This document shows, piece after piece, positions 9,294 to 63,055 of a stretch of DNA of 64,000 bases (the first letter of the stretch is position 1; each line of letters starts with the position of its first letter). The notes below the pieces were generated by a model. It was not told the DNA's origin and ran no database searches. It saw only the letters and a program-made list of their open reading frames with translations. The DNA is from Chloroflexota bacterium (GTDB taxonomy: Bacteria > Chloroflexota > Dehalococcoidia > JABGRK01). The stretch covers positions 200,621-264,620 of the forward strand of contig JABGRK010000010.1 of NCBI GenBank assembly GCA_018648325.1, given 5' to 3'. Made by a program: the position numbers and the translations under genes.

Positions 9294-10244
9294 TTAATTC
9301 TGTAACTCGGCATATATATCTGGGTGGATGATTTCCAGCATTGCCATTATTCCTTCCACCACACGTGGTCCGTTGCGGCTGATTATATCGGCATCAATAT
9401 CGTATATTTTGTCGTTTTGCACTGCCGCAAGGTTGTCCCATGCACCGCCGCGGGCTTTAACATCGCTTGCCGTTACCCGTGGTGCGTCTGCCAGAATGAT
9501 CATCTCCGAGTCTGCGGCAACCAGATATTCCAGACTGACGTTGGGGTTGTTCTTGGATACCCCCACACCGACATCTGTGCCTCCAGCCAGCATGATTAGA
9601 TTGCTGACGAATGATCCCGATCCAGTGGTCCATATCCCACCGCCATAGCCTGTTTCGCAAAACACCGTAGGCCTGGATACAAGCGCTGTTTTAGCGGTGA
9701 TCGTTGCCAGATCAGCTCTAAGCTGCGCAGTAAGTTCTTCGGCGGTTTTGGTCACATCCATGATTGTACCGACCAGCTCAATATCGGCCATTATGTCATC
9801 GATGCTCTCCGGTCCAAGCACCATAACTGTCAGACCGAGGCCCTCCAGCTGTTCCACGTAGGCAGGCAAATTGTAGCCAAAGGCTATTACCAGGTCTGGC
9901 TCAAGTGCCGTAATAGCTTCAATGTTGACGGCAAAGGCATTACCAACCCTGGCTATTTTGCCATCGGCGCCGTCTTCCAGTGCGCTTCTGGTATTAACCT
10001 CTTCCGGGTAGTTGCAAAAGTCGCTGACTCCAACAACGTTATCGCCCAGCCCCAGCGCGAACAGTATCTCGGTATTGCTTGGTGCCAGAGACACTATCTT
10101 TTCCGGGACGGTATCGAAGGTAAGTGTTCTGCCGAGATCATCGTTTATATCGCCCGCAACCGCAACTGGCGTTGCACAGGCAGTAATGGATACAACCAGT
10201 AAGATTATGGGCAGCATTAGCCCAAGTAGCTTTTTGAAGTTCAT
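9294..10244 (-). CDS. btuF: Class III periplasmic substrate-binding lipoprotein (BtuF/FepB-like), probable cobalamin-binding
   Basis: Lipobox SITACA. PBP-fold pattern. Placed directly behind a cobalamin riboswitch. Confidence 0.75.
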   Translation of the reverse strand: MNFKKLLGLMLPIILLVVSITACATPVAVAGDINDDLGRTLTFDTVPEKIVSLAPSNTEILFALGLGDNVVGVSDFCNYPEEVNTRSALEDGADGKIARVGNAFAVNIEAITALEPDLVIAFGYNLPAYVEQLEGLGLTVMVLGPESIDDIMADIELVGTIMDVTKTAEELTAQLRADLATITAKTALVSRPTVFCETGYGGGIWTTGSGSFVSNLIMLAGGTDVGVGVSKNNPNVSLEYLVAADSEMIILADAPRVTASDVKARGGAWDNLAAVQNDKIYDIDADIISRNGPRVVEGIMAMLEIIHPDIYAELQN

Positions 10245-10324: not shown

Positions 10325-10505
10325 GATCCGCTCATGCCCAACCCCTTTCCGCGGAGGTCCTTCAGGACAAAGTCAAAGGCGGGCGTTCTGGCTTCCATGA
10401 CTATTGCATGGTTACAGCAGCGGGACTGCGCCGGACTTTCACCGGACTTGCTATCCGCATTAAGCCCCTCTAGCGGGGCGCCTTTGCTTTCGCTATATGG
10501 TTTGA
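10325..10505 (-). ncRNA. Cobalamin (B12) riboswitch upstream of btuFCD
   Basis: The minus-strand RNA contains GGUGAAAGUCC and GCAGUCCCGCUGCUGUAA. It also has a B12-box-like AGCCAGAACGCCCGCC (consensus AGYCMGGAGACCKGCC). Confidence 0.75.
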
Positions 10506-14731: not shown

Positions 14732-14758
14732 AACATGCAATTCACTACAGTTTTGGTT

Positions 14759-14807
14759 ATCGGGATGTTCATCCACTGATGCTTATGATTGTTCAATACC
14801 ATTTGTG
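14759..14807 (+). repeat. Intergenic repeat element, copy A (ATCGGGATGTTCATCCACTGATGCTTATGATTG...ATACCATTT)
   Basis: Aligns with the copies at 20124, 22198 and (partial) 22763. Confidence 0.6.
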
Positions 14808-14970
14808 TTTTCAATTCAACGGTTTACCAACATAAATACGTCTATTAGTCTATGAAAAATTAGAGTTGTTAGTTAGTATTTAGGTTTTTGCGTAATCAAT
14901 CGTTGATTATTGTACCTGAATGATTTAGAATTCATTAACAATTCTTGATATTGGATATACGTAGAAATAC

Positions 14971-17900
14971 ATGAAATCTATTTTCGTTGCAATGAGCTTG
15001 GTTGCTTTTATAGGCAGCTTTATTTTGGTGGGACTGACCGCCTTTTCTGTATCTTCTTCCGCTAGTGCTTCAGGTGACATTAAACCTCCATTTGATGATA
15101 CCCAATTGGGAATAAGTGGGCATATCTCTAATATACTCACGGAAAAACTGATAGATACAGAGGATGAAACCGTTTTCATTGCCTCATCTAGAGGTCTATA
15201 TATCCTCAAACAGGAAACACTGCAGGCTTGTATCCCACTATCAAGTCAGATTACTGATATGGCTACAATAGAAGATATATCGGGTGATGGTAAGCGAGAA
15301 ATCGTGATAACACTGTACGAAAGCCATTATTCCAACGTTAGATGTTACGATCCGGCCACTGGGGACCTCTTATGGCAGTATTCCAGTACAGAGCGCGTTT
15401 ATGTTGAAGACATAGGATGGAATACCGTAAATTCTATCCCATCCACACTCAAAATTATAAATAATAACCGCATTGCTTTTACGCTCAGGGACAAACTTCT
15501 GGTATTGGACAGCAATGGCTGTTTGGCTGGCTATGCTAATACAGGGTTAGATTATCTGGAAGTGGTTCAAGATATGAACGGCGACGGGGTGAGTGACCTT
15601 CTGGGAGCCATGCAGCATCCCCCACCGGAGACGGCCTATAAAAATCTCCAGGGGCAACAGATTTTCCCTGCACTGTATTTGTTTAGTGGGACAAATGGCA
15701 TGCAAATTGATTGCATACAAAAGACACCAAATGTTGAAACCCCTACCAATGCATCATTCTTATCAATGGAGGTTTTTGAAATGGATGGCCGGAGTACAGC
15801 GGCCATGCGAATCCTCTACGGAGAAGAACTCAGGCTATATTTGATTGATTTGGTAACCAAAGCTATTGATTGGGAGATCGCACCTTTTGCACACAGATTT
15901 GGTGAATTCTCCCGTAGAGATATCAGAAATGCGGGAGATATTAACAGTGATGGCTATGATGACATCATGGAGCTTGCCGAGAAGAGGTTTGTAACGCCTT
16001 GGGCGATTGAATATGAGACTACAATCATGATTTATGATGGACGAACGCAGGAGACATTATGGGATGCAGACTTGATGATTCCCAGCCAGTTAAACTACAT
16101 CAACTTTTTATCGCTAGATAACCAGACGGTTTTGGTAGCAACACAAGAAATTGATGCCGGTGAAACGATCTTTAATGTTTTTGATATCGTGCAGGGTGAA
16201 CTATCTCTGAGCTTTAATATTAGTGGCGTGGATTTTAACCCAAACGTTTTTCAGTACAATGGCAATAGTTGGCTGTATTATTATGATCATGGTCTTCTTC
16301 ATATTTCAGGCCAGGGTGATATTCTGTGGCATCTTCCTGTCACGCCTGATTCGATTATAGCTGCCAGGGGCGATTTTGTGGGAGATGACACAGATGATTT
16401 TCTTCTGTATTCAAATGACGATGTCGGATATTTGTCTTCTGTAACCAGATCATTGTGTGTAGTAGATGGTGCCACATATCAGAAGATATGGTCTTACAAT
16501 GTTCCCGACATTGATAGCGCTCTTGAACATATACAGATCGTTCCCGACATCGATGGGGATGGCAGGCAAGATATAGTTGGTATAGAAAATACCGGCGCTG
16601 TACGTGATCTGGCTGCAGATCAAAGCAAGATATTCGAGTTTAGCGGTAGTGGTGATGCCGGTCAAGCGAAAGTTATATCTGAGATACCACTTGCAAGACT
16701 CACCGCGTCGTTCGCTTTCATTCCTTACCAGGCAGGTTCATATGCGGTCGGTAGTCACAGTAATCTGTCAGTGGTAGATCGAGCCGGTAATGTCCTTTGG
16801 CAAAAAAATTATACAGATTGGGGAGCATCCTATACCAGCGTCGAAGATGTCAGTGTTATCGTTGTTGGTGATGTCAATGATGATAATATCCCTGATATAG
16901 CTACACTTTTTAAGCAAGAGGTTGTAATAAGTAAAAGCGATGTCTGGCCTAACTATATAGATCATGTCAACTACAGGGGTTTTGTAAGACCTGGGGTACA
17001 GGCTTCTCAAACAGAAACATTTCACTATGAGAAGGAAGCTTCTGATCTCAATGATGATGGTGTAAAGGATATAGTATTTACTATAAAAACCGATGAGAGA
17101 TGGGTCGCCTATACTGCCTTGTCACCTGTAAGCGGGCAGGAGGTATTTCAGGCATTTATGGGAGAGTATACAGGAGCTAACAGGATGATCGTGAAACCGT
17201 CATATGTCGATTTCAACAATGATGGTTTTACAGATAATCTGGTATTTCAAGGAGAGGCTTGGGGTAGGGACAGTTGGCGATGGAATAATTTGAAGCTTTG
17301 GATATCAAGTGGTAAAGATGGTACAAGTATATATGATATCGATCTTTCCGCTATCCCAAATAGCATCAGTATGATTGGTACGGTTGAGATCACTGACACT
17401 TCAGTGATGCCTGCATCTGCGATAACAGATATGAATGGAGATGGTATCGCAGAACTTGCCGTATTTACCATGGAGTTGAGTGTAGATGGTGACGATAACA
17501 CGGAGGGATTTTTTCATCTAACCCCGCTAAGCGATGTTAAATCAAGGCCAGCTCTCACTATTTATGACATTGCTCAAGGTAAAGAGTTGAAAACTTTCCC
17601 AGTCATTGATGATGATGTATTTAAAGATCGTAAATTGCACATTTCCATGCGTGAGATAGGCGATGTAAATAGCAACGGCAGCAGTGATATTGCTCTTATC
17701 TCAGACATAGGGATAACCGTAGTTGATGTGCAGCAGGAGCGTACCATATCAAAGTTTTCTTTGGACTCCCCGGTTGAAATCGTGCATGTAGCAGATAGCC
17801 AGACTGTGGGCCTGGTTATTGGGGGTGGGCTCTATATGTATGATGCATCAAGCGATTTTACTATAACTTCACCTGCCACAGGGAGTAACATCAGTACTCC

Positions 17901-18225
17901 GGCAAGAGTCTCCTGGGAGGGTGGCACAGATGGCTCTTCTACACGCGTTCTGGTAAATCAGGTATTTGCAGGTCAAACCGCAGACAACTATTTTGATTTA
18001 CCGCTAAAAAAGGGAAGCTACAAACTAACTATTGCATCGGAAGACCAATATGGAAAAACCTATTATGACACTGTGGTTTTCACTACAGCAAAAGGGGTAG
18101 CAACAGCGGTATTTATCATTCTGCTTTTAATCATTTTGGTTGCTTCCCTATTGGCATTCAGGTTTTCTAAAAAGATACGTAGGGCCAAATTCAAGTGGGG
18201 AGGTTGGCTACGGAAGACACCTTAA
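14971..18225 (+). CDS. Large secreted/membrane-anchored FG-GAP (integrin-alpha-like, D-x-N/D-x-D-G-x-x-D) repeat protein with C-terminal TM anchor
   Basis: Signal peptide. Many DINGDG/DMNGDG/DIDGDG calcium-binding-like loops. C-terminal hydrophobic helix followed by basic residues (RFSKKIRRAK). Confidence 0.7.
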   Translation: MKSIFVAMSLVAFIGSFILVGLTAFSVSSSASASGDIKPPFDDTQLGISGHISNILTEKLIDTEDETVFIASSRGLYILKQETLQACIPLSSQITDMATIEDISGDGKREIVITLYESHYSNVRCYDPATGDLLWQYSSTERVYVEDIGWNTVNSIPSTLKIINNNRIAFTLRDKLLVLDSNGCLAGYANTGLDYLEVVQDMNGDGVSDLLGAMQHPPPETAYKNLQGQQIFPALYLFSGTNGMQIDCIQKTPNVETPTNASFLSMEVFEMDGRSTAAMRILYGEELRLYLIDLVTKAIDWEIAPFAHRFGEFSRRDIRNAGDINSDGYDDIMELAEKRFVTPWAIEYETTIMIYDGRTQETLWDADLMIPSQLNYINFLSLDNQTVLVATQEIDAGETIFNVFDIVQGELSLSFNISGVDFNPNVFQYNGNSWLYYYDHGLLHISGQGDILWHLPVTPDSIIAARGDFVGDDTDDFLLYSNDDVGYLSSVTRSLCVVDGATYQKIWSYNVPDIDSALEHIQIVPDIDGDGRQDIVGIENTGAVRDLAADQSKIFEFSGSGDAGQAKVISEIPLARLTASFAFIPYQAGSYAVGSHSNLSVVDRAGNVLWQKNYTDWGASYTSVEDVSVIVVGDVNDDNIPDIATLFKQEVVISKSDVWPNYIDHVNYRGFVRPGVQASQTETFHYEKEASDLNDDGVKDIVFTIKTDERWVAYTALSPVSGQEVFQAFMGEYTGANRMIVKPSYVDFNNDGFTDNLVFQGEAWGRDSWRWNNLKLWISSGKDGTSIYDIDLSAIPNSISMIGTVEITDTSVMPASAITDMNGDGIAELAVFTMELSVDGDDNTEGFFHLTPLSDVKSRPALTIYDIAQGKELKTFPVIDDDVFKDRKLHISMREIGDVNSNGSSDIALISDIGITVVDVQQERTISKFSLDSPVEIVHVADSQTVGLVIGGGLYMYDASSDFTITSPATGSNISTPARVSWEGGTDGSSTRVLVNQVFAGQTADNYFDLPLKKGSYKLTIASEDQYGKTYYDTVVFTTAKGVATAVFIILLLIILVASLLAFRFSKKIRRAKFKWGGWLRKTP

Positions 18226-19148
18226 TGATTGAAACCAGGGGAATGACAAAGGTCTTCGGTGGTCTGGTTGCCGTCAATGATCTGGATATGAAGGTCAGGC
18301 GCGGTACAATCCACGGCTTTGTTGGTCCCAACGGAGCGGGGAAGACAACTACAATTAAAATGCTGGTTGGGCTGCTTAGATGCAGCAGCGGTAAAGGATT
18401 GATCAAGGGTCTTGCTGCCGGTTCAAAAGACGCCAGAAGGATTGTTGGCTACTCGCCGGAACGCCCGCCTCTGTACAGTGATATGACCACAGAGGACTAT
18501 CTTAAATTCATGGCAAGGCTTAGCGGTCTTAAATCGGCTGAAGCAGTAAACAGAACAGCCGAGTTACTTGATCTGGTGGAACTCACTGGTTTCAAAGACA
18601 GCAAAGTGGGAGGCTTTTCCGCTGGAATGAAACAGCGTTTGGGGCTTGCTCAAGCGTTGGTAAATCATCCTGAACTGATCATACTGGATGAGCCCACCGC
18701 TAATTTGGACCCCACTGGCAGAAGAACGGTTATAAACAAGCTGAAAAAGCTTAACTACGAGCACAATATAACCATATTGATCAGCAGTCATATTTTACCG
18801 GAGCTTGAGCAGTTGATCGACTCGGTCACTTTGATAAATAAGGGCAAATCGGTGATTGAGAACGACCTGGATCAGGTAAAAGAAGACTTCAAACGAGACA
18901 GATACAGAATAAATACATCGGATAACAAGAGGGTTATTGATACACTGAAAGTCAAATCATATGTTGATGATATACAGGTCGACCAAGCGGGTGATATCCA
19001 CATTACCTGTTTAGATGCGCAGATATTGCAGGATGATCTAATCGACATTATAACCGAACATAAGCTGCGGCTGACAACCTTTGATGAGGAAACAATAAAG
19101 CTTGATGACATTTATTCCCAGTCGCTAAATATAGGTGAGGAACAGTAA
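18225..19148 (+). CDS. ABC transporter ATP-binding protein (ABC-2/DrrA-like)
   Basis: Walker A GPNGAGKTT, LSGGMKQR, ILDEPT. ATG at 18225 overlaps the stop of the FG-GAP gene. Confidence 0.85.
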   Translation: MIETRGMTKVFGGLVAVNDLDMKVRRGTIHGFVGPNGAGKTTTIKMLVGLLRCSSGKGLIKGLAAGSKDARRIVGYSPERPPLYSDMTTEDYLKFMARLSGLKSAEAVNRTAELLDLVELTGFKDSKVGGFSAGMKQRLGLAQALVNHPELIILDEPTANLDPTGRRTVINKLKKLNYEHNITILISSHILPELEQLIDSVTLINKGKSVIENDLDQVKEDFKRDRYRINTSDNKRVIDTLKVKSYVDDIQVDQAGDIHITCLDAQILQDDLIDIITEHKLRLTTFDEETIKLDDIYSQSLNIGEEQ

Positions 19149-19151
19149 TCA

Positions 19152-20093
19152 ATGGGGTTTTTGCTTAGTTTTAATAAGACCTTTTGTGACATACTTGGGC
19201 TCAAGCGCAATGTAACTATTGTCATGCTCATGGTATTGGCAATAGTGCTGTATTGCTTTTTTAAATGGTCCAACGAAATAAACGTAGAGGAAATTTCTCC
19301 AGTTGCATTGCAAACGCAGTTCATTGCAGATCAGATTGTTTTCATTTGGTATATCTGGTGTGCCGGTGTGCTTCTGGCCATTTTGGTATCTGCGCATGCT
19401 GCTGGCTTTATATCCAAAGAGGTTACAGACGGAACACTGATGCTCATTGTCAACAAACCTATTAATAGATATGAGATCATCATTGGGAAACTTGCCGCAC
19501 TGATTGTGAACTCTATAATGCTTCTGGCTATCGGTTATCTATTTTCCATATTGCTGCTCTGGGGCATACTGCCCCTTGATATGGACAGTCTGCAAACTCT
19601 GTTTGGCATGATGCCCTCTATGATTTTGTACGCTTTTCTTGTAGCCTTGTTTTTCGGATCCTTATCTATTGCCTTTTCTGCGCTCATGAACAGCCGAATA
19701 AAGATAGTAATGATAGCCATGACACTAATCATGTATACTTTCTTTTTTGGTGTGCTTGTTCGCTTTGTTGTGGATAAAGAGGGATCAAATCAGTATGCAA
19801 ATCTCGGTCTTTACTCTGTTGACACGGGATACCATATCAGTAATACATTTTATCTTCTTAGCAATGATATCGAGTTTTGGGATATATCGCCAACTCATCA
19901 GGTCTTCTTTGGGGGATATACAGGCACATACTATATGTCGGGCATCTCCGGTCAGGATAATCAGTTTGGCAAGGTTCTTTACTCGAACCCTACTGATTAT
20001 ATTCATCCTGCATATTCATTATTTATAGTGCTGGGTATTTCTGCAGGCGCTATTGGATTGGCTATGTGGGGGCTGCATAGAAAAGAATTATAA
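19152..20093 (+). CDS. ABC-2 type permease (6 TM)
   Basis: 313 aa hydrophobic protein immediately after the ATPase gene. Confidence 0.6.
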   Translation: MGFLLSFNKTFCDILGLKRNVTIVMLMVLAIVLYCFFKWSNEINVEEISPVALQTQFIADQIVFIWYIWCAGVLLAILVSAHAAGFISKEVTDGTLMLIVNKPINRYEIIIGKLAALIVNSIMLLAIGYLFSILLLWGILPLDMDSLQTLFGMMPSMILYAFLVALFFGSLSIAFSALMNSRIKIVMIAMTLIMYTFFFGVLVRFVVDKEGSNQYANLGLYSVDTGYHISNTFYLLSNDIEFWDISPTHQVFFGGYTGTYYMSGISGQDNQFGKVLYSNPTDYIHPAYSLFIVLGISAGAIGLAMWGLHRKEL

Positions 20094-20123
20094 TCAGGTG
20101 ATTAATTTATCGAATATACAAAA

Positions 20124-20172
20124 ACATCGGGATGTTTGTCCACTGATGCGTACGATTGGGCTATGCCATTTC
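20124..20172 (+). repeat. Intergenic repeat element, copy B
   Basis: ACATCGGGATGTTTGTCCACTGATGCGTACGATTGGGCTATGCCATTT. Confidence 0.6.
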
Positions 20173-20235
20173 GAGAGTATGTAAAGCTGTAAAATTGTGG
20201 GCAGTATAGTAGAGTTGGTTTTTCGATGGTAAGCT

Positions 20236-22101
20236 TTAATATTCACGCAATGGCTTGTATATTTGTAGACTTACAACTAGATCCATGAGGCTCCATCTGT
20301 AATTGATATAGTATTCCGGGGGTGCAGAACAAGTTATTGTCCACACAGTATTACCCACAAGTGCATATGATTGCACAGACCGTAATATGCCATCTCCCGT
20401 GTAATCTGCTTCAGACTCCATGATGATTCCCTCTTGTCCGGCAATGCCTCTAGCAGTATGGTAATACCTGTAATAATCTTCCGCCAAGCTTATTGCAGTA
20501 CGTTCGCATGCTGCAACATAATCATTAAGCAGCACATATGGCGGATCATCAAGTGTCCAAGAGTCTGCAGTTAGTGCTTCTACACTGATATTGATACTTG
20601 GCATAAGCCCGTTTGCATTGGTCAGTCCAGCAACGAAAATTGTTCTGTATTGCTCAAAAGCAGCCTCCAGTTCAGCATGAGTTATAAAATCGTTAGTGAA
20701 GTATTCCTGAAGGCTTGGAGTCATTTCTGATGATATTACCCAATCTGTTGGGTACGCGATGCTGAAAAGGCCAGATTGATCTGCATAAATAGCCTCATCA
20801 TAGTCGAATGAATTGGGGAATGTACGTCCTAGCGACCTCGTAACACTCTCTATAAAGTCAGGATCGTCTGATAAATCAATAGCTTTCCCAAAATCTAACA
20901 TTGCTTTTACTTTTTCTCCTTGGGCCAGATAAGCTTTCCCTCGATTGTAGTAAGCGTCGGCATGGTTTGGATCAAGCTCAATTGCCTTTTCAAAATCAGC
21001 CATTGCGTTTGTTAAGTCGTCCATCTGATAATAAGATATTCCTCGATTGTAGTAAGCGTCGGTATAGCTAGGATCAAGCTCAATTGCTCTTTCAAAATCA
21101 GCTATTGCGTTGGTTAAGTCGTTCATTTCGTAATAAGTGTAACCCCGCCCATTGTAAGCACCAGCATGGTTTGGATCAAGTTCAATTGCCTTTTCAAAAT
21201 CAGCCATTGCGTTTGTTTCTTCTTCTGTCTCGCTATAAGACATTGCTCGATTATAATAAGCGTCAGCCAACTGATAGTCAGGACGAATGGCATTCCTTGG
21301 TATTGTTATGTTTACTGGAACATTATAATCGTAGATCGACATAGTCATATCTACATCAATAGCAATCCCTTCTATAGTCATTCTAAACTGCATCTGTTGC
21401 TTTACTGGGAGATTGGTATTCTTATCAACCCATATTTTGATTGTTGCATCACTCATTAAATTTTGGATCTCGTTGGTCGTAATACCTTCAAACGAGTCTT
21501 TCATTCCGGGTTGTCGCATGGTAAAGTCAATCAACTCATCAGTATCCAATACAATGTCAAACATATGGCAATCAGTGCCTTCTATTGTGTCACTACCATT
21601 GTGTCTTACTTCACCAAAAGAAAACACTTCTAGCTGTTGCGCAAGTTGGTCTTGTTCCTCCCATTCGGCATGGGGAACTTCCATGTTAATCCAGCCACTT
21701 GGTTGCCCTGTGACTTCGGTCAACATATACATAATGTGGGATGGTGTCCCTTGGTTAGAAATATTAGTCATAAGGCATGCTATCGCATATATTTCTATTG
21801 ATTGATTCGCAGTTCCGCCTGACATAGCCATTTTCATGTTCATATTTTCAACATCGATTGCACCACTGTAGTCCATTGTCATATTTAATCCAGACTGATC
21901 GCTGTAATTCATGCTCATGGTACCTTCAAACTTAAAACTGCTAACATCATCACCTGAAGATAATATAGATTGCTTCAGCTCATTGGAGATAAGTGCGTTT
22001 GCACTTGAACACCCAACAAAGGCAGAAAGTAAAGCTAGTATAAGCAGTAATCCGATAAATCTAATGCTGGCACCCATATACGCTATATTCATATAATCCA
22101 A
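20236..22101 (-). CDS. TPR-repeat lipoprotein (4+ TPR units)
   Basis: Signal peptide with lipobox FVGCS. Repeated AYYNRG...A(I/M)ADFEKAIELDPN units. Confidence 0.75.
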   Translation of the reverse strand: MDYMNIAYMGASIRFIGLLLILALLSAFVGCSSANALISNELKQSILSSGDDVSSFKFEGTMSMNYSDQSGLNMTMDYSGAIDVENMNMKMAMSGGTANQSIEIYAIACLMTNISNQGTPSHIMYMLTEVTGQPSGWINMEVPHAEWEEQDQLAQQLEVFSFGEVRHNGSDTIEGTDCHMFDIVLDTDELIDFTMRQPGMKDSFEGITTNEIQNLMSDATIKIWVDKNTNLPVKQQMQFRMTIEGIAIDVDMTMSIYDYNVPVNITIPRNAIRPDYQLADAYYNRAMSYSETEEETNAMADFEKAIELDPNHAGAYNGRGYTYYEMNDLTNAIADFERAIELDPSYTDAYYNRGISYYQMDDLTNAMADFEKAIELDPNHADAYYNRGKAYLAQGEKVKAMLDFGKAIDLSDDPDFIESVTRSLGRTFPNSFDYDEAIYADQSGLFSIAYPTDWVISSEMTPSLQEYFTNDFITHAELEAAFEQYRTIFVAGLTNANGLMPSINISVEALTADSWTLDDPPYVLLNDYVAACERTAISLAEDYYRYYHTARGIAGQEGIIMESEADYTGDGILRSVQSYALVGNTVWTITCSAPPEYYINYRWSLMDLVVSLQIYKPLREY

Positions 22102-22197
22102 CTCACTACGTTTTGAGGTTAATCATAGTATAGAGACGGGTAGCAGTCAACTAAGTGGCATATAATGACAGTTAGTTTTGTATGTATGGGAGCACAA

Positions 22198-22246
22198 ACA
22201 TCGGGATGTCTGTCCAGCTATGCGTACTCTTGGTTAATACCATTTA
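22198..22246 (+). repeat. Intergenic repeat element, copy C
   Basis: ACATCGGGATGTCTGTCCAGCTATGCGTACTCTTGGTTAATACCATTT. Confidence 0.6.
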
Positions 22247-22322
22247 CATTTACCGGTTAAGAACCGCTTGGATATTGCTTGAAAGAAAAAAGAAGAGTGG
22301 ATTCATTTGGTATTACTAGTAA

Positions 22323-22592
22323 TTAATTATAAGTCGTGATGATAAAGGAAAATATCACGAAAGCGATAGTAAACGAATTAAATACTGTTCCAAGTACAGC
22401 AAATAGGAGTTTTCTGCTTTTTTGCCTCAATCCGATAATGCCCAGTACAAGCCCAACGATAGTAGTAACAAAAACCAAAATTGCGATAATACCAATTCCC
22501 AAGTAATGCGAGGATTCACCGTGGTCTATTAGCCACATAGTTTCTAATACTACAGCGATCAATGCCGCTGCGATAAGAAGTGATCCCATCAC
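22323..22592 (-). CDS. Small membrane protein (3 TM), hypothetical
   Basis: 89 aa and hydrophobic. Its start overlaps the stop of an upstream small zinc-ribbon ORF (TGATG). Confidence 0.45.
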   Translation of the reverse strand: MMGSLLIAAALIAVVLETMWLIDHGESSHYLGIGIIAILVFVTTIVGLVLGIIGLRQKSRKLLFAVLGTVFNSFTIAFVIFSFIITTYN

Positions 22593-22744
22593 AAGGCTGA
22601 TAATAAGGGAGGCTTTGCCGAAAGATGATTGCTAAGTTCATCTTTTTTGGCAATACCACATTTCATACAATGGATAGCTCCCTCATCCATAGGGTTGCCG
22701 CATTTTACACAATACATACCTTTTCCCGTTTGCATAATCAGCAT
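22589..22744 (-). CDS. Small zinc-ribbon ORF (CVKCG...CMKCG), possibly translationally coupled to the downstream membrane protein
   Basis: 51 aa from ATG 22744, or 42 aa from ATG 22717, which follows GGAAAAGG. Two CxxC pairs. Confidence 0.3.
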   Translation of the reverse strand: MLIMQTGKGMYCVKCGNPMDEGAIHCMKCGIAKKDELSNHLSAKPPLLSAL

Positions 22745-22762
22745 TATAGCACCATCATAAGA

Positions 22763-22790
22763 ACATCGGGATAGCTATATGGATGTGTTT
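22763..22790 (+). repeat. Intergenic repeat element, partial copy D (first ~12 nt conserved, then diverged)
   Basis: ACATCGGGATAGCTATATGGATG... Confidence 0.35.
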
Positions 22791-22860
22791 ATCATCGCCA
22801 GGGCCCATGTTTGCCCAAACACGCTAAGAAAAATAATGGAAAAAAGTAGGCATAAAAAAA

Positions 22861-22933
22861 TGGAGCTGAGGGGATTCGAACCCCTGACCTCCTCCGTGCA
22901 AGGGAGGCGCTCTCCCAATTGAGCTACAGCCCC
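22861..22933 (-). tRNA. tRNA-Ala (anticodon UGC)
   Basis: Cloverleaf by eye: GGGGCUGUAGCUCA..., anticodon loop CUUGCAC, G3:U70, discriminator A73. CCA is not encoded. Confidence 0.9.
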
Positions 22934-22989
22934 ATGTCTAAGTTCAATTCTATCAATAATCCGCTGTGTGCGCAATATCATGCGATTCA

Positions 22990-23900
22990 CGGTAGTGGGT
23001 CATTTTCAATTAATGAGATTTACGATGTCACTTATCTCCCATTTTTGTTCACTCACACCAGCCGCAATAGCAGGCGTTGTCTTTAAGCCTATATGCACTT
23101 TGCAAAAGTTGTAATACATGAAGTGTAGTGCTACCGCGTGTTCTAAGTTTGCTATTTTCTTTGAAAAGGCATTTGTTAATCTTGTAAATCGCCTCATATG
23201 CATACGCATTGTAAGATTTTGGCGCTCGACATAACTTGTAGATATTTGCGTAGTATCTGGTTTTCCTTGCTTTACTCGTGTGTCTGTGCCAATACATGGG
23301 GGAGGGCTATACCTTGTGTCTTGGTGATAGGTTTTACCGTACAACTTAACTAACATCGCATAATCTATGTCAGCCCCAAACGCATCCTCAACTGCCTCTA
23401 AATACGTTTTATATCCGTCTGTGGTGAGCTGTATGCGATTAGTTAATCTGCTCTTTAGGTCATACATAAAAGCGTGTGCGAACTCAGCACTACGATCCCC
23501 AACTACCCAACATGGAACTAATCTCGTATCTGCATCAATCGCTACCCATGTCCACACATCGCCTACGCCATATTCATCACGCTTTGATTCTGGGACATTC
23601 TTCTGCTTGGAGTAACAGAAAGACCATATTTCATCACACTGAACTTTTTTGCAATTGAGATTATTCATTACATTATTTTGATATGCGCTACATGCAGCAC
23701 CAACATTATTGAGTAGTCGAATTACCGTTCCTTTTGCTGCGCCAGTCATGCGGCAAGTTGACCTAATTGAGTTGCCCTCTACGAGTGCTGAGACTATCTG
23801 ACTTCGGCGTTCCACACTCAACTTATTCATACTAGTATTATACTAGACCGCTCAAGCATTGTCAAGCATTTAGGGGTCAATTTGAAAATCTGGGGATAAC
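22990..23900 (-). mobile_element. IS1-family insertion sequence (boundaries approximate)
   Basis: Single-ORF IS1 transposase. A GGGTCAnTTT(C/G)AA motif appears near both ends (22996-23010 and 23874-23890), but clean terminal inverted repeats could not be established by eye. Confidence 0.4.
23006..23830 (-). CDS. IS1-family transposase (InsAB-like fused ORF)
   Basis: Motifs align with E. coli InsB. CDEIWSF matches CAEMDEQWGY, WTWVAIDADTRL matches WLFYAYD, TDGYKTYLE matches TDGWPLYE, and VERQNLTMRMHMRRFTRLTNAFSKK matches [25 protein letters not shown]. N-terminal HTH region. Confidence 0.85.
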   Translation of the reverse strand: MNKLSVERRSQIVSALVEGNSIRSTCRMTGAAKGTVIRLLNNVGAACSAYQNNVMNNLNCKKVQCDEIWSFCYSKQKNVPESKRDEYGVGDVWTWVAIDADTRLVPCWVVGDRSAEFAHAFMYDLKSRLTNRIQLTTDGYKTYLEAVEDAFGADIDYAMLVKLYGKTYHQDTRYSPPPCIGTDTRVKQGKPDTTQISTSYVERQNLTMRMHMRRFTRLTNAFSKKIANLEHAVALHFMYYNFCKVHIGLKTTPAIAAGVSEQKWEISDIVNLIN

Positions 23901-24030
23901 TATTGACTGCTAGTGATATAGTTTAATCGGCGCACGGTAGGCACCCAACATAGGTTGCAGCTACAATCGTCAACTTTTAGGTGAACACCTTTGGACACGG
24001 GCAACTAGCCCAGAAAGGTGGTGATTGGTA

Positions 24031-24141
24031 ATGGCTAAGACCGAAGATGGGAAAAAGATAGTTCCAGTGAAACCTTATACCCGTAAAACGGATAATGGTG
24101 TGGTTAAGGTGAAGCGTCACAAGCGCTCCACCCCAAACTAA
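24031..24141 (+). CDS. Very small basic protein (36 aa), hypothetical
   Basis: MAKTEDGKKIVPVKPYTRKTDNGVVKVKRHKRSTPN. GGTGGTGA RBS 4 nt upstream. Absent from the ORF track. Confidence 0.3.
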   Translation: MAKTEDGKKIVPVKPYTRKTDNGVVKVKRHKRSTPN

Positions 24142-24169
24142 ATTTGGACTAACAGCCTACCGTGTTGCC

Positions 24170-24400
24170 TTAAACTTCCGATTTCTTTGCCCACCTAGCC
24201 ACAGCCGCCTTCTTAGCGATCTCCGACCTTTGTTCTGGCGTTAGTTTCGCAGCCCTAGCCTTACCACCCTTTAAACCGCCGAGTTTACCAAGCGCCACGG
24301 CAGCAGGGTTCTTCTCTTTTTTGAGTTTAAAGGGGCTAGTAGCATCACTAACAATAGTTGAAGCTATTTCATTTATGTCTTTGCTTGAGCGTTTAGGCAT
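24170..24400 (-). CDS. Small basic protein with KGG-like/Gly-Lys-rich C-terminal motif (LGKLGGLKGGKARAAKLTPEQRSEIAKKAA)
   Basis: 76 aa, lysine-rich. No confident family. Confidence 0.4.
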   Translation of the reverse strand: MPKRSSKDINEIASTIVSDATSPFKLKKEKNPAAVALGKLGGLKGGKARAAKLTPEQRSEIAKKAAVARWAKKSEV

Positions 24401-24440
24401 ATCTTATTATGACCTTTTTAGAGACTGATTGTCAAGGGTT

Positions 24441-25010
24441 TTATGTGCAGAATTCTTTTATAAAATCTTGAATGTGCTGCAATCTGGAACATAATGGCTC
24501 ATATAACTGCAATGTGTCCTCATTTTGGATTAAATCAGTTTGATGGATGCTGATATTATTTTTAAATATTGATTGATATGACTTCCCAATATTATCCAAT
24601 ATATATCCCTCTGCTTCACCAGTCCACAAGTGATATTGCTCCCAAGGTGTTGGGTAAACCTGACGTTTGCACATTGTGGCTATCTCGTTGCCATCTCTTA
24701 ATAGTTTGCCCAACTTATCGCATATCTCATCATTTACCATCTTGCTTTTTAGTAGTTTTTCTAACTCACTTGTCTTTGCCCGATCCTCACGATGTATCGA
24801 ATATGGCGCAATTATTATACCAATTACGATAGTAGTGAGTAGCGCAGTTAAGGGGATCGCCCACATTAATATTGACACTACACCATCCAACCCAGAGACG
24901 AAATAGGTAATTGCCAAAAGGGTAACGGTTGCAATTGAAGCGACAAACTCTGCCGTTCGCAGTTTGCCTCCAAATACTTTTTGGAAATATCTTTTGGCGT
25001 AGTTGCCCAT
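24441..25010 (-). CDS. Membrane protein (2 TM plus cytoplasmic domain), hypothetical
   Basis: 189 aa and AT-rich. Adjacent to the IS1 element. Confidence 0.4.
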   Translation of the reverse strand: MGNYAKRYFQKVFGGKLRTAEFVASIATVTLLAITYFVSGLDGVVSILMWAIPLTALLTTIVIGIIIAPYSIHREDRAKTSELEKLLKSKMVNDEICDKLGKLLRDGNEIATMCKRQVYPTPWEQYHLWTGEAEGYILDNIGKSYQSIFKNNISIHQTDLIQNEDTLQLYEPLCSRLQHIQDFIKEFCT

Positions 25011-26562: not shown

Positions 26563-26587
26563 TGGGGTCACACGTCGGGATGGTTGT

Positions 26588-27013
26588 TCACTCATGAGTA
26601 TGCGAACTTATACGGTACCGAATTCTGGTCGCAACAAGACCGTCTGCGTCCATCGTCCCCGTAATCCTAATCTCCCTATTTTCCTCAAAACCATCCCCCA
26701 CAGACCCGTCGTATACTACAGCCAGTTCGCCGTTTCCATCTACATCATAAATATCAAATTCATAATGCTGGTTTGGGGCATCCTCCTCAATAGAGTCAGC
26801 CTTCACCCTACCGTCTACCTCAATTGTTCGCCCGTAAACAGCGCTGCCCTTCGCTAGAAGCGTACTTACGCTCGAATAGTGAGGTGGTATATTACGTAAA
26901 TAATGTAAATGGCCAAAAAGCAAAAAGCTCATTGCCAGTACTAAAACAACACCGACAATAACAACGGTCTTTCTTCTAAACTCCATTACCCCTAATAGAA
27001 ACCTTGCGATCAT
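26588..27013 (-). CDS. Membrane-anchored OB-fold protein resembling the CcmE family (no canonical heme-binding HxxxY/AKHDE motif)
   Basis: N-terminal TM followed by a periplasmic beta-rich domain (VDGRV...FDIYD..G...VVYDG). Weak similarity only. Confidence 0.35.
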   Translation of the reverse strand: MIARFLLGVMEFRRKTVVIVGVVLVLAMSFLLFGHLHYLRNIPPHYSSVSTLLAKGSAVYGRTIEVDGRVKADSIEEDAPNQHYEFDIYDVDGNGELAVVYDGSVGDGFEENREIRITGTMDADGLVATRIRYRISSHTHE

Positions 27014-27189
27014 CTTTTACCTGCCTCCGGCGTCTACTCTATTTATCAATCTGACCGCTAGCATCATACTTAGCAATTACATAGTTTGCAACCCTGTCAT
27101 AACATGACTAAAATTGACAGATATCTACCCGTAATGCGATACTGTGTAGAGCAACAGTGACCATTTTTCATAAAAACAAGAGGTATGCC

Positions 27190-27660
27190 ATGCGATATGT
27201 GTTGATATTAGTGCTTCTGTGCGGTTTATTACTAATGGGTTGTTCACTTATGCAATATTCTTTGACTGTCTCAGCTGATTCGCCAGAAACTGGCTCTGTA
27301 ACGCTCAATCCAACAACCGACATATATGAACATGGCGATAGGGTGCTTATAACCGCCACTCCAGCAGAAGGATATATATTTGATCACTGGAGCGGCGATT
27401 TGTCTGGAAGCACCAACCCACAAAATATTCAAGGCTGGAGGCTTGTGGATATAAGGGAAGGTTTTCCGACGTTCATATTCCCGTCATACACACTCGAACC
27501 GGATGCCTCCATTCGAGTCTATACAAATGAAATCCATACTGAGTCTGGCGGTTTCAGTTTCGGGCGAGGAAGCGATATCTGGAATAACACAAGCCCTGAT
27601 ATGGCTGGACTTTATGACGCACAAAACAATCTGGTTTCATACAAGAGCTATGAATTGTAA
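27190..27660 (+). CDS. Lipoprotein with InlB B-repeat/Listeria-Bacteroides-repeat-like domain
   Basis: Start at ATG 27190 after AAGAGG. Lipobox LMGCS. Has the LTVSADSPETGSVTLNP...YEHGDRVLITATPAEGYIFDHWSGD pattern. Confidence 0.5.
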   Translation: MRYVLILVLLCGLLLMGCSLMQYSLTVSADSPETGSVTLNPTTDIYEHGDRVLITATPAEGYIFDHWSGDLSGSTNPQNIQGWRLVDIREGFPTFIFPSYTLEPDASIRVYTNEIHTESGGFSFGRGSDIWNNTSPDMAGLYDAQNNLVSYKSYEL

Positions 27661-27784
27661 TCAGGGGTACACAAGCTATCACCATGATGCCACATTCGTG
27701 CGTTACACCACCGTAAACATAGGGATGGCTGTCCTCTGATGCATATGAATAATAAAGGACTATTTGTAGCTTAAGTAAATAGCT

Positions 27785-28462
27785 CTATAAATGTAAAATA
27801 GTGCCATCATAACCCACTGCAAAAACATCAGAGGAGGAATTGCCCCACACACACTTAAGAAACGCCGCCGTGGTACCGCTGCTCATTGCGCTCCAGTCTG
27901 TTCCATTATAGTGCAGAATAGTTCCACTCACACCCACAGTATAGACATCTGAGGAGGAACTGCCCCACACATTATATAGATGTTCTGTGGTGCCGCTGCT
28001 CATCTCGCTCCAGGCTGTTCCATCATAGTGCAGAATGGTTCCACTCCCACCTACGGCAAAGACATCGGAGGACGAGCTTCCCCATATACTGCGTAGACGT
28101 TCAGTTGTTCCGCTGGTCATTGAGCTCCAGGATGTGCTCCTGAATGATGCTTGTATTGTATGGTTGGCAGTCACATCAGAAAATGCGTAGCTGTTTACGA
28201 TACCAACCGAAACACCGTCCACCAGTACATCGGCAATCCTGTATCCGGTATCCGGGGTGACGGTAAAGGATTTGTTGTCACCGTCGTCGACAATCACAGC
28301 ACCGGACGGAGATATCGAGCCGTCGGTATCTGTAGAAGCGGTAATGGTGTGGGTTGCCGCAGTATTATCATTATTGGGATTGCTACAACTGCTTGCAAGT
28401 AAGGTGAATGAAAAGGATAGCATCAGTATTAAAACAAAGCATAAAATGCGAATTCTAAGCAT
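27785..28462 (-). CDS. Secreted protein: InlB-B-repeat-like domain plus 3-4 ~40-aa beta-propeller-like repeats (WSxMSSGTTExLxxVWGSSSSDVFAVGxSGTILHYDGT). It ends in the middle of a repeat and may be truncated.
   Basis: Signal peptide and repeat periodicity are visible in the translation. The stop occurs after TILHL, inside a repeat unit. Confidence 0.5.
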   Translation of the reverse strand: MLRIRILCFVLILMLSFSFTLLASSCSNPNNDNTAATHTITASTDTDGSISPSGAVIVDDGDNKSFTVTPDTGYRIADVLVDGVSVGIVNSYAFSDVTANHTIQASFRSTSWSSMTSGTTERLRSIWGSSSSDVFAVGGSGTILHYDGTAWSEMSSGTTEHLYNVWGSSSSDVYTVGVSGTILHYNGTDWSAMSSGTTAAFLKCVWGNSSSDVFAVGYDGTILHL

Positions 28463-58140: not shown

Positions 58141-58145
58141 GTGAT

Positions 58146-58580: not shown

Positions 58581-58689
58581 TGTTTGTGTCCGGTCCAAAG
58601 TATGGTGATAATTGGACTTTGCACTCAAAATAGCATAGAATACTCTGCAGCTACACTTCTCTGGAAGATTTGGTTAGGATTAACTTTGT

Positions 58690-59922: not shown

Positions 59923-60056
59923 CGATTGAAATGAGCGCGATTGCGTTTTCATTGATTAATTCTACAAAAAGCTCCATCGGCTACTAACAATCTTTTGTTA
60001 TGCCCCGTTGTGATATACTGAACTGGATCAGCATGAGAGGAGAAAATCATACATAT

Positions 60057-63051: not shown

Positions 63052-63055
63052 TATT

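Follow-up and report, generated by a model that had tools for sequence, protein, structure and literature searches.

A repeated intergenic element in a Dehalococcoidia contig is most likely a scar of serine-recombinase islands that normally insert into the end of dnaN

The window analyzed here, the whole 64-kb stretch of DNA, contains a block of lower GC content (0.40–0.43, compared with 0.46–0.52 elsewhere in the window) that begins at w1, the first of four copies of a short repeated element (Table 1). Copy w1 is located 21 nt past the stop of a PAS histidine kinase gene (14731) and 167 nt ahead of the FG-GAP gene, and w2 is flanked by the convergent genes for the ABC-2 permease (ending at 20093) and the TPR protein (ending at 20236). 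Copy w3 lies between the start of the TPR gene (22101, - strand) and the end of a small membrane ORF (22323, - strand), while w4 lies between convergent genes at 27157–27660 (+) and 27785–28462 (-), both with InlB B-repeat domains. The three-gene block between w1 and w2 is also present in other genomes with different neighbors; element relics follow its permease gene at loci L129 and L131, and at L141 no element was found ahead of the FG-GAP gene.

Repeat finding across the window joined + strand repeats at 14752–14804, 20119–20171, and 22193–22245 into one family, and the pattern ATCGGGATGTNNNTCCANNNATGC with up to three mismatches gave four matches in the window against 0.03 expected from shuffles; we regard the repeat as genuine. 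A preliminary description of this DNA had listed four copies of about 50 nt, intergenic and all on one strand. Location and orientation hold for every copy in the window, and the copies listed at 14759, 20124, and 22198 are recovered by the family profile (E-values of 3.5e-15, 4.7e-18, and 3.1e-19 for w1, w2, and w3, respectively), whereas the element measures about 75–80 nt and the 'degenerate copy' placed at 22763 is not supported as a family member. The latter is a separate palindrome with a profile E-value of 0.77; it has only AACATCGGGAT in common with the family, reads CCGATGTTCTTATGA on the opposite strand, and is at most a target-type half-site. Copy w4 (E = 9.6e-14) had been overlooked. 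A possible fifth copy, consisting of the half-site CGTCGGGATGGTTGTTCACTCATGAGTAT, scored weakly, with E = 0.005 for the seed profile and 0.0004 when the family profile was applied to the identical stretch in L132.

Table 1. Copies of the element, gene blocks between them, and related features in the window (positions within the 64-kb stretch).
Feature	Start	End	Strand	GC	Content or evidence
Copy w1	14757	14827	+		Central GG 14762–14763; repeat finding, pattern search, profile
w1–w2 cargo block	14828	20115	+	0.41–0.43	FG-GAP protein, DrrA-type ABC ATPase, ABC-2 permease
Copy w2	20116	20194	+		Central GG 20129–20130; repeat finding, pattern search, profile
w2–w3 cargo block	20195	22185	-	0.40	One TPR-repeat gene
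Copy w3	22186	22261	+		Central GG 22203–22204; repeat finding, pattern search, profile
w3–w4 block	22262	27702			Small zinc-ribbon and membrane ORFs, tRNA-Ala(TGC), IS1-like transposase, GntR, DUF1648, CcmE-like gene, InlB-repeat/LTD protein
Separate palindrome	22754	22795			42 nt, imperfect
Possible fifth copy	26569	26603	+		Decayed short form, half-site only; weak profile scores
Copy w4	27703	27787	+		Repeat finding, pattern search, profile

The family consensus reads cgCTGGACAAACATC-GG-GATGTTTGTCCAGcg, with CATGCGTAC adjoining it on one side. An imperfect inverted repeat with arms of 13–15 bp plus CATGCGTAC surrounds the GG, as in the layout of recombinase att sites; the palindrome spans 26–34 nt. 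On the opposite strand the variable left arm reads CCN ATG TTY GTN CAR TGG stop, which is exactly the 3' end of dnaN in this clade (...MPMFVQW-stop). DnaN of four element-bearing loci ends in ...NYTHVVMPMFVQW-stop, encoded by CCG ATG TTY GTN CAR TGG TRR, and MPMFVQW is C-terminal in all 120 DnaN relatives listed, 119 of which end there and one of which has a single extra residue. The variable positions of this arm are codon third positions with the degeneracy predicted for each residue (Pro four bases, Phe R, Val four bases, Gln Y), and the synonymous fraction is 0.68 in the dnaN frame versus 0.14 and 0.21 in the other two.

On the strand used in the preliminary description, the near-invariant right part is the coding tail of a large serine recombinase (LSR), about its final 21 codons (...TS/GCLSSHAYKYLIPFAFSIK-stop). 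It is composed of the arm GATGTTTGTCCAG, then CATGCGTAC, then ..GATACCGTTT.., and 149 of 206 copies keep its + frame open over 19 codons or more. A stop falls at codon 19–21 in 96 copies, compared with seven and five in the other frames, and the synonymous fraction of the tail, measured outside the bases fixed by the search pattern, is 0.51 versus 0.23 and 0.09. Subfamilies with a 'variable spacer' correspond to the peptides KYL, SWA, and DWL. The two halves join at the central GG of the palindrome. Alignment of dnaN junctions with element copies disclosed a common left half and divergence from the central CC/GG on, with left similarity boundaries peaking at -13/-14 and at the core, and in 130 of 171 copies a recognizable dnaN 3' end is joined with its stop codon at the element boundary. 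This is the arrangement of a hybrid site, with a target-identical left half, an element-specific right half, and a switch at the center.

Among the window copies, the recombinase side is better preserved in w1, w2, and w3 than in w4. Right of the GG in w1, the half-site and tail on the + strand are SGCSSTDAYDCSIPFVFSIQ..., the + frame of w2 from 20127 is SGCLSTDAYDWAMPFREYVKL with a TAA stop at 20190–20192, and that of w3 from 22201 is SGCLSSYAYSWLIPFTFTG with a TAA stop at 22258–22260. The dnaN-end match on their target sides ceases after 5, 9, and 12 nt, respectively: in w1 the half is gone right after CCGAT (opposite strand), in w2 the match extends to CCGATGTTT and no further, and in w3 to CCGATGTTTGTG. 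Copy w4 has the most decayed recombinase side, with a TAG at the core, and the most complete target side, CCTATGTTTACGGTGGTGTAA, which encodes PMFTVV-stop on the opposite strand. Of the two arms, the element-side one alone recurs in the window.

In relatives, inserted DNA next to dnaN is surrounded by direct repeats of the target end, and one locus, L147, is an empty site. The dnaN 21-mer recurs as direct repeats downstream of dnaN in L143, L146, L064, L105, L025, and L007, and a full element lies downstream of dnaN in L142. In the complete genome CP070842.1 a full element is placed 2.8 kb past dnaN, followed by the genes dnaX, ftsZ, gap, and eno. An LSR gene occurs right after dnaN in L144/L145 (490 aa) and in L148 (526 aa), in each case convergent with dnaN, overlapping its last 26 nt, and followed by mobile-element genes. 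L063 (4392–6017) encodes an intact 541-aa Resolvase + Recombinase protein whose ORF passes through a copy and ends ...SSGCLSSHAYSWALPFSYAVKL-stop. Its target-side half does not encode the dnaN end, and thus some family members do not target dnaN. A gene fragment at L111 also links a copy to a recombinase: it keeps ...VEITGTIPIDITTTSSSHGLPTIERTS/GCLSSHAYKYLIPFAFSIR-stop and can be aligned colinearly to the C-terminal end of the LSR of L148 (...VEITGSVPMSITTTSSSGDLITIVQTSA-stop). No recombination directionality factor was identified in these loci, where only an HTH_17 gene in L148 was noted, and no island was seen with both junctions and its own recombinase, the attR of the intact-looking L144 and L148 islands lying beyond the sequence examined.

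The recombinase-tail signature could also be left by plain pseudogenes, with each copy being the last ~75 nt of a decayed serine-recombinase gene whose upstream part was deleted, and with no role as a junction. L111 retains a longer recombinase 3' fragment upstream of its copy, and the DNA left of the core is unrelated in w1–w3, both as expected of such remnants. However, random deletion is not expected to break so often at the same dinucleotide, the palindrome center, nor to join so many copies to a dnaN 3' end with a boundary stop, and the dnaN-end direct repeats downstream of dnaN would remain unexplained. We therefore consider pseudogene remnants unlikely.

The family comprises at least 184 copies by profile at 128 loci in Dehalococcoidia genomes and metagenomes, and has no match in viral, phage, and plasmid collections. 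A degenerate 28-mer was found at eight loci among species-representative genomes, seven of them in Dehalococcoidia, and on at least 120 metagenome contigs. Two to four copies occur at 39 loci with a spacing of 0.4–4 kb, and the multi-copy loci listed have a single orientation everywhere except L007. The existence of subfamilies, the intergenic position with the tail side facing a gene 3' end in 100 of 147 cases, the roughly twofold excess of copies near contig ends (17 observed, 7.9 expected), and the presence of copies far from dnaN, as in the window, would suit a REP/MITE-like non-autonomous repeat that spreads itself to intergenic sites, mobilized in trans by a transposase or recombinase whose gene lies at another locus. 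This reading of the preliminary description did not hold up. The copies lack terminal inverted repeats and target-site duplications, similarity between them stops at the element ends, and comparison of relatives gave no empty/filled pair with intact flanks; their synteny instead breaks at the element. Copies are few and clustered, the exact pattern occurring at a single site of a complete 2.3-Mb genome, beside a second, diverged copy. No transposase recurs near the copies in two samples of neighboring genes, with no recurrent Y1, RAYT, or DDE family, although a cognate gene could sit elsewhere in the genome. A selfish non-coding repeat would not be expected to carry coding signatures on its two halves. 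In comparison with REP/BIME, ERIC, and Correia-type repeats, the family is likewise short, palindrome-containing, intergenic, and often just past genes, but it differs in its low, clustered copy number, in having no RAYT or transposase association, and in two coding-derived halves explicable as a recombination junction. A self-spreading repeat is thus quite improbable.

The palindrome could form a hairpin, and a small RNA had been proposed as well; we weighed with it a 3'-UTR stabilizer or terminator and an operator or promoter shared by neighboring genes, the preliminary description having itself argued against a promoter. Orientation tracks gene direction: at strongly strand-biased loci, 18 of 21 copies run against the strand that carries most genes (in the orientation of the preliminary description). 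Of 148 copies, 85 turn their palindrome side toward a gene start, with a peak at 100–150 nt, and a promoter scan located TGGACA-18-TATATT on the - strand of w2. In 63 of the 148, though, the palindrome side faces a gene 3' end, so a promoter there would drive nothing, and the genes on either side have unrelated functions, with 150 and 168 Pfam families in the two samples. Rfam (Rfam 15) gave no match apart from generic hairpin noise. RNAalifold returned no consensus structure, the stem has no compensatory changes, wobble-type changes are equal on both strands, and so is the mean folding energy (-17.3 kcal/mol); neither strand has a U-tract after the hairpin. A structured RNA or regulatory site is accordingly very improbable.

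Co-oriented arrays of copies separate unrelated ORFs, mostly just past a stop codon, and homology between loci ends at the element boundaries, features that recall an integron-like cassette array with the element as attC. The dyad symmetry is nevertheless limited to the central ~30 of ~80 nt, the hairpin has no extrahelical bases, and the termini of the consensus, on inspection, do not fit RYYYAAC/GTTRRRY core sites. The supposed cassettes reach 5 kb and may hold several genes or a tRNA gene. No enrichment of IntI-type tyrosine integrases was found among 106 ORFs of 277–480 aa near copies, where families have at most two members and Phage_integrase is absent from those listed, and no intI with attI was seen heading such an array. 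We give the integron reading almost no credence.

We consider it probable, judging from the sequences, that the copies are attR-type junctions, each marking the far end of an island mobilized by an LSR; this retains the remaining reading of the preliminary description, an att-like site, here a hybrid of the dnaN 3' end and a recombinase-side attachment arm. The recombinase side would serve both as the LSR half-site and as the last ~21 codons and stop of the LSR gene, which would place attP inside the recombinase's own reading frame. The left arm would be the target half, with the last 21 nt of dnaN (P-M-F-V-Q-W-stop) as the primary target, and for an L148- or L063-type recombinase the predicted partner of the dnaN 3' end is a 50-bp site centered on ...GGACAAACATC CC GATGTT.... 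Integration, with crossover presumably at GG/CC, would join the island to dnaN and provide a new, synonymous dnaN end, while the recombinase gene, convergent with dnaN, would be shortened to ...QTSA-stop. At the opposite end of the island, the former recombinase tail would then adjoin the displaced dnaN end. As further islands entered the regenerated dnaN end, older ones would be pushed outward, which could produce arrays of co-oriented scars between unrelated cargo blocks. Against this reading, recombinase genes are not enriched beside the sampled copies, where no more than two of 252 representative ORFs carry a resolvase domain.

Neither dnaN nor a serine recombinase was found in the window, an intact dnaN-like 21-mer is missing as well, and the target-side halves of the copies are only partly dnaN-like; for these reasons we infer, rather than observe, that these copies are attR-type scars at the borders of low-GC cargo blocks that have decayed. 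Among the window ORFs scanned, a set leaving aside about 20 ORFs of at least 120 aa at 1–9.3 and 51.7–64 kb, none showed a Resolvase or Recombinase domain, and a JGI gene list with Pfam labels for 49.7–63.5 kb includes no recombinase. Gene lists of contigs overlapping one or the other window end show neither dnaN nor a serine recombinase, but these contigs extend little past the window, the longest on the right ending about 1.4 kb beyond the queried gene and the only one returned on the left being 5.3 kb long. Housekeeping genes (glmS, znu, V-ATPase) adjoin the array on the right, and hence it is not contiguous with dnaN via island DNA. Given these absences and the truncated target halves, the copies would be old scars, decayed or relocated, or products of secondary-site integration. 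The repeat in the window is most likely the scar of islands that normally insert into the dnaN end of Dehalococcoidia.

Island integration by an LSR is ordinary mobile-element biology, while the target and site layout seem to be undescribed. Attachment sites of LSRs such as SPbeta SprA/YokA, TP901-1, A118, phiC31, and Bxb1 are imperfect inverted repeats of ~40–50 bp with a non-palindromic central dinucleotide. The family LSRs share the Resolvase + Recombinase + zinc ribbon architecture of phage and ICE large serine integrases, and their closest solved relatives are SPbeta YokA and the TP901-1 integrase, at low identity (E about 1e-15). Unlike in those integrases, attP here would be inside the integrase ORF, and integration would therefore exchange the protein's last ~21 residues. 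In SSV1-type (fusellovirus) archaeal integrases, attP also lies in the integrase gene, which is partitioned upon integration. Those enzymes, however, belong to the tyrosine recombinases, are directed to tRNA genes, and have the whole integrase gene split, whereas the serine recombinase here would lose a short C-terminal tail only.

SCCmec and other SCC elements rely on the large serine recombinases CcrAB or CcrC and enter rlmH/orfX, a gene close to the origin, at its 3' end. They resemble the present islands in the use of a serine recombinase and the 3' end of a conserved gene with its reading frame kept, in composite or tandem elements bounded by direct repeats, and in the occurrence of recombinase-less pseudo-elements. 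Host phylum and target gene differ, and ccr genes lie within the element, not across its attachment site.

A parallel between SCC elements and the ssrA islands of Dehalococcoides mccartyi, which depend on the serine recombinase DsiB, was drawn by McMurdie et al. (2011, PMC3146451), and these islands are a precedent with the same logic. Found in the same host class, they carry a serine recombinase of ~540 residues on the reverse strand beside attL, integrate into an essential single-copy gene at its 3' terminus, have a far boundary with a ~20-bp direct repeat of the gene end plus a short conserved island-side motif, and accumulate in tandem downstream of the target, many without an integration module (PMC3146451). 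The island-side arm here is longer, ~55 nt, and is itself the C-terminal coding tail of the recombinase, an arrangement not described for dsiB in the passages of PMC3146451 consulted. The target differs as well, being the tmRNA gene there (PMC3146451) and the protein-coding dnaN here, and consequently the island-borne half must preserve the reading frame (PMFVQW-stop).

Repeat detection in the window recovered a family of direct repeats with four members, here called w1 to w4, and the core pattern, with up to three mismatches allowed, matched exactly these four sites against 0.03 expected from shuffled sequence. The preliminary description had likewise counted four copies, three of which both methods recovered; the copy at 27.7 kb (w4) had been overlooked, and the supposed degenerate copy at 22763 is not supported, having a family-profile E-value of 0.77 and only AACATCGGGAT in common with the family. 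That site is a separate 42-nt palindrome, while a decayed candidate fifth copy lies between w3 and w4. Apart from one wrong and one overlooked copy the observation is real, and all copies are intergenic and co-oriented, as had been claimed.

Beyond the window, eight loci in species-representative genomes matched a degenerate 28-mer that covers all four copies; seven of these loci lie in Dehalococcoidia metagenome-assembled genomes. A slightly looser pattern matched at least 120 metagenome contigs and no viral contig, and phage and plasmid collections held no match to the element. A family profile built from 12 copies returned 184 copies when searched against the window and 128 loci; 39 loci carry two to four copies spaced 0.4-4 kb apart, and the multi-copy loci listed keep one orientation throughout, with L007 as the sole exception. 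The unit spans ~75-80 nt, similarity stops at its ends, and its consensus reads tACCAyTGrACrAAC ATC GG GATGTTTGTCCAG cCATGCGTAC (8-10 variable nt) GATACCGTTT rcCTTTTCTaTaAA.

Homology between loci also tends to stop at element boundaries, and among relatives of genes from the window synteny ends precisely at the element; after two permease orthologues come element relics of differing form and differing neighbours, and an FG-GAP orthologue has no element and another gene upstream. Flanking genes are extremely diverse, from GLUG/InlB surface proteins, ABC transporters, kinases and methyltransferases to fumarase, FBPase, catalase and dnaN. Among 147 cases, the right-hand tail of the element points towards the 3' end of a gene in 100, and of the 21 copies at strongly strand-biased loci, 18 run antisense to the genes when oriented as written here. 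An orientation set by replication was rejected, as copies follow gene direction rather than GC skew.

Individual loci show further arrangements. GLUG-motif / InlB-B-repeat surface-protein paralogues ending ...YIWNIVN..TYPFLSWQS (L031, L074, L086, L087, L090, L128, L056, L060, L079, L096) have their stop codon at a distance of exactly 25 nt from the tail of the element, almost without exception (33 nt in L056); the gene's final ~300 nt and the element form a single conserved module, and the near-identical strains L060 and L087 differ in the number of such modules. An association with tRNA genes was discarded, since those present in some loci do not adjoin copies. At L009 a short-form copy ending ...CATGCGTAC abuts the apparent 3' part of a tRNA gene (GGGTTCGAATCCCCTAACTCCACCA), which may point to members that use a tRNA target or lie beside one. 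At L124 a left-arm half-site passes straight into coding sequence for the C-terminal part of an IS3-family transposase (...QWRSEYNHIRT), and this fusion is a rearrangement endpoint at the element core.

Half-sites retaining the left arm and core only provided the entry point to the origin of the element. Four of them are 3' ends of dnaN, the DNA-polymerase clamp gene (L007, L025, L064, L105), where DnaN terminates ...NYTHVVMPMFVQW and stop. The reverse complement of left arm and core is the last 21 nt of dnaN, CCG ATG TTY GTN CAR TGG TRR, up to the element boundary, and MPMFVQW stands at the C-terminus in 120 of 120 DnaN relatives among the matches listed (terminal in 119, with one extra residue in one). 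The left arm varies at the third positions of codons, and in the way each codon predicts: all four bases occur for Pro and Val, either purine for Phe and either pyrimidine for Gln, as read on the element strand. In the dnaN frame, 68% of single-base codon differences are synonymous, compared with 14% and 21% in the other two frames.

The right part reads on the element strand itself, in the frame ..ACA TCG GGA TGT TTG TCC AGC CAT GCG TAC ..., which in 149 of 206 copies runs for 19 codons or more without a stop. In 96 copies it ends at codon 19-21, compared with 7 and 5 copies for the other frames. Outside the bases fixed by the search pattern, 51% of single-base differences in the tail are synonymous, compared with 23% and 9% in the other frames. 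Apparent subfamilies with a variable spacer correspond to the peptides KYL, SWA and DWL inside ...SGCLSSHAY-xxx-IPFAFSIK and stop. Both halves of the element are fossils of coding sequence.

Other readings of the same bases fared less well. The small RNA offered in the preliminary description is not supported, given null Rfam results, both at gathering thresholds for the window and at permissive E-values for the best copy, the lack of an RNAalifold consensus and a mean folding energy that is the same on both strands over 171 copies; moreover, the palindrome's right arm hardly varies, its left arm changes with no compensating substitutions, and wobble-type changes are as common on one strand as on the other. 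A consensus scan gave nothing consistent for a promoter or terminator. Several sigma-70 and ECF alignments made by hand, together with a match to an IHF site (TATCAAATATTTG) restricted to one subfamily, were dropped because the coding explanation accounts better for these bases. A small ORF on the opposite strand (MVL..NIPMFVQW) was also rejected, its start codon being unconserved and its coding-type variation limited to the last 7 codons.

The protein of the right part is a large serine recombinase. At L063, a 541-aa ORF with Resolvase and Recombinase domains extends through a copy and ends ...SSGCLSSHAYSWALPFSYAVKL and stop, and L111 holds a recombinase 3' fragment, ...KRLALEILNIRVTITCDQVEITGTIPIDITTTSSSHGLPTIERTS followed by GCLSSHAYKYLIPFAFSIR and stop. 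The L063 gene is the sole intact recombinase found that reads through a copy; translation of its target-side half would give P-M-N-G-K-P, not the DnaN end, and this lineage probably has a different target.

DNA around dnaN was also retrieved from other genomes. A 490-aa Resolvase, Recombinase and zinc-ribbon protein (L144/L145) and a 526-aa Recombinase and zinc-ribbon protein (L148) are encoded directly after dnaN, convergent with it and overlapping its last 26 nt, and are followed by genes typical of mobile elements, namely a further resolvase, a tyrosine integrase, IstB, Rep_O and HTH_17. Their C-termini, ...FVTIEQTSA and ...LITIVQTSA, are colinear with the L111 fragment as far as TS, after which they stop inside dnaN and do not continue into GCLSS.... 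The best solved relatives are SPbeta YokA/SprA and the TP901-1 integrase. Clustering of 740 ORFs and two pooled Pfam scans showed no recurrent recombinase beside copies; the link came solely from the dnaN loci.

In the standard serine-integrase scheme, attB (B-CC-B') recombines with attP (P-CC-P') to give attL (B-CC-P') and attR (P-CC-B'), and our data fit this scheme. B-CC-B' would be the dnaN end; P' would be an island-borne synonymous copy of that end whose other strand codes ..T(T/I)E(R/Q)TS of the recombinase, and P would be the mirror half-site plus ~45 nt coding the last ~21 recombinase residues. Integration would restore dnaN and cut the recombinase to ..TSA and stop, while at the far end of the island the P arm would come to lie beside the displaced dnaN end, forming the element. 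Such a junction would explain the palindrome, the asymmetric conservation and the abrupt switch in mode of evolution at the centre, as well as co-oriented arrays that prefer positions just after (cargo) genes. We infer both that crossover takes place at GG/CC and what the exchange of tails means functionally; a complete junction pair of one island together with its recombinase was not seen.

Among the three possibilities originally suggested, the att-like site is the correct one, given the dnaN-end and recombinase-tail coding signatures. The element lacks terminal inverted repeats and target duplications, which speaks against the REP/MITE-like alternative, and no transposase or tyrosine integrase recurs among flanking genes. 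Involvement of the IS1-like transposase of the window was rejected, no element-related inverted repeats being found, and integron attC, lox/dif-like sites, IS200/IS605 ends, REP/RAYT and oriT-like nick sites all fit the anatomy worse than a serine-recombinase attachment site.

The dnaN locus itself appears both empty and occupied. At L147, an empty site, a CBS-domain gene follows 32 nt after dnaN. Downstream of dnaN in L143, L146, L064 (four repeats), L105, L025 and L007, the dnaN 21-mer recurs as direct repeats that keep the orientation of dnaN; several of them are full elements. The complete genome CP070842.1 has a full element 2.8 kb past dnaN; the interval contains three ORFs, unannotated or of NERD type, and dnaX, ftsZ, gap and eno come after the element. 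Other conserved arm sequences (classes X, Z, W, V) are fused to the same 21-mer and look like attachment-site arms of other recombinase lineages using the dnaN end, suggesting that several lineages share the target. At least four such arms, 60-70 nt each, meet a dnaN-like 21-mer at the same central position.

Taken jointly, these data allow a tentative reading, plausible rather than probable, of a widespread, undescribed class of islands in uncultured Dehalococcoidia that attach at the last 21 nt of dnaN. The site would be dual-coding, one strand keeping the DnaN C-terminus PMFVQW and stop and the other coding part of the recombinase. With attP inside the recombinase ORF, the last ~21 residues (GCLSSHAY..IPFAFSIK) would on integration be swapped for a single alanine, which could be a built-in switch between integration-competent and integrated enzyme forms. 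The four or more further arm types may mean that several recombinase lineages compete for the site, building a plasticity zone beside dnaN.

In the window, the recombinase-tail frame is still open in w1 (SGCSSTDAYDCSIPFVFSIQ..), w2 (SGCLSTDAYDWAMPFREYVKL and stop) and w3 (SGCLSSYAYSWLIPFTFTG and stop); the recombinase side of w4 is decayed. On the target side, similarity to the dnaN end ceases after CCGAT in w1, CCGATGTTT in w2 and CCGATGTTTGTG in w3, and in w4 the match is nearly complete but altered (PMFTVV and stop). The window holds no dnaN, serine recombinase or intact dnaN 21-mer; contigs overlapping both its ends carried neither dnaN nor recombinase and added little DNA. GC is 0.40-0.43 in the block beginning at w1, compared with 0.46-0.52 across most of the window, and housekeeping DNA lies to the right of the array. 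We conclude that the window contains an orphan array of old junction scars bounding decayed cargo blocks. These scars may have formed at dnaN and then been separated from it, or they may reflect integration at secondary sites.

Further features of the window are listed with the sites in the table. The zinc-ribbon and membrane ORFs look like one frameshift-split gene or a coupled pair. The IS1-like transposase gene directly adjoins tRNA-Ala, and its terminal inverted repeats were not found within 22600-24500.

Features of the window, and sites at other loci where a locus is named
Feature	Position	Strand	Remark
Two adjacent paralogous genes	5204-5503 / 6688-6987		78% over 300 nt
Periplasmic-binding-protein and FecCD-type ABC uptake cluster	9294-10244 and further left
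Cobalamin riboswitch	10361-10500	-	Rfam RF00174, 54 bits; upstream of uptake cluster
PAS histidine kinase	left of w1	+	gene map
w1	14752-14804	+	repeat detection
FG-GAP protein, ABC ATPase, ABC-2 permease	between w1 and w2	+	gene map
w2	20119-20171	+	repeat detection
TPR protein	between w2 and w3	-	gene map
TPR repeats	20929-21264		102 nt
w3	22193-22245	+	repeat detection
Small membrane and zinc-ribbon ORFs, tRNA-Ala, IS1-like transposase	between w3 and w4	-	gene map
Zinc-ribbon ORF, then directly membrane ORF	22323-22747	-	51 aa (JGI gene call); 88-89 aa
tRNA-Ala(TGC)	22860-22934	-
IS1-like DDE transposase gene	23006-23830	-
Promoter-like site	23865-23837		perfect TTGACA-17-TATAAT
GntR, DUF1648, CcmE-like, InlB-repeat/LTD protein	between w3 and w4	+	strand as listed in gene map
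Candidate fifth copy	26569-26603		decayed
w4	27712-27764	+	repeat detection
InlB-repeat protein	right of w4	-	gene map
Repeats in InlB-repeat protein gene	27792-28103		117-120 nt
Unannotated ORF	44364-46040		558 aa
Tandem pair within that ORF	44712-44898		102 nt, 92% identical
V-type ATPase operon	49.7-58.1 kb		complete; precedes second low-GC stretch
Second low-GC stretch	58000-64000		GC 0.40-0.43; Wzy_C, epimerase, glycosyltransferase, FemAB-like genes
Recombinase reading through a copy	L063 4392-6017
Short-form copy beside tRNA part	L009 8130-8210
Half-site fused to IS3-family transposase	L124, after element at 2038
Other-arm sites	L031 6317 and 8406; L074 (three sites); L067; L005 1257; L029
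Other-arm sites, further loci	L108; L066; L058 4182; L054; L015

For annotation, an apparent conserved non-coding element here is the fossil of two overlapping coding sequences fused by site-specific recombination, which calls for care when repeats and small RNAs are sought in metagenome-assembled genomes and is a warning about "conserved intergenic elements". The main relevance lies in Dehalococcoidia genome plasticity, whose mechanisms are known mainly from cultivated organohalide respirers, and in serine-recombinase biology. If the model holds, the dnaN 21-mer and the recombinase tail offer a simple marker for horizontally acquired blocks in marine and subsurface Dehalococcoidia. The work also adds a large serine recombinase family with a defined natural target in an essential gene, a type of enzyme of interest as an integration tool, and suggests that integration itself could edit the recombinase C-terminus.

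Non-exhaustive literature searches found no paper linking dnaN with serine-recombinase integration, and nothing on Dehalococcoidia with REP or integron/attC. Among described systems, the ssrA genomic islands of Dehalococcoides mccartyi come closest. In these islands, a serine recombinase of ~540 residues is encoded on the reverse strand next to attL, the islands pile up in tandem, many without integration genes, and the authors draw a comparison with SCCmec/Ccr (PMC3146451). The present family differs from the ssrA islands in that its target is a protein-coding gene, dnaN, its attachment site would be dual-coding, and its attP would lie inside the recombinase ORF.
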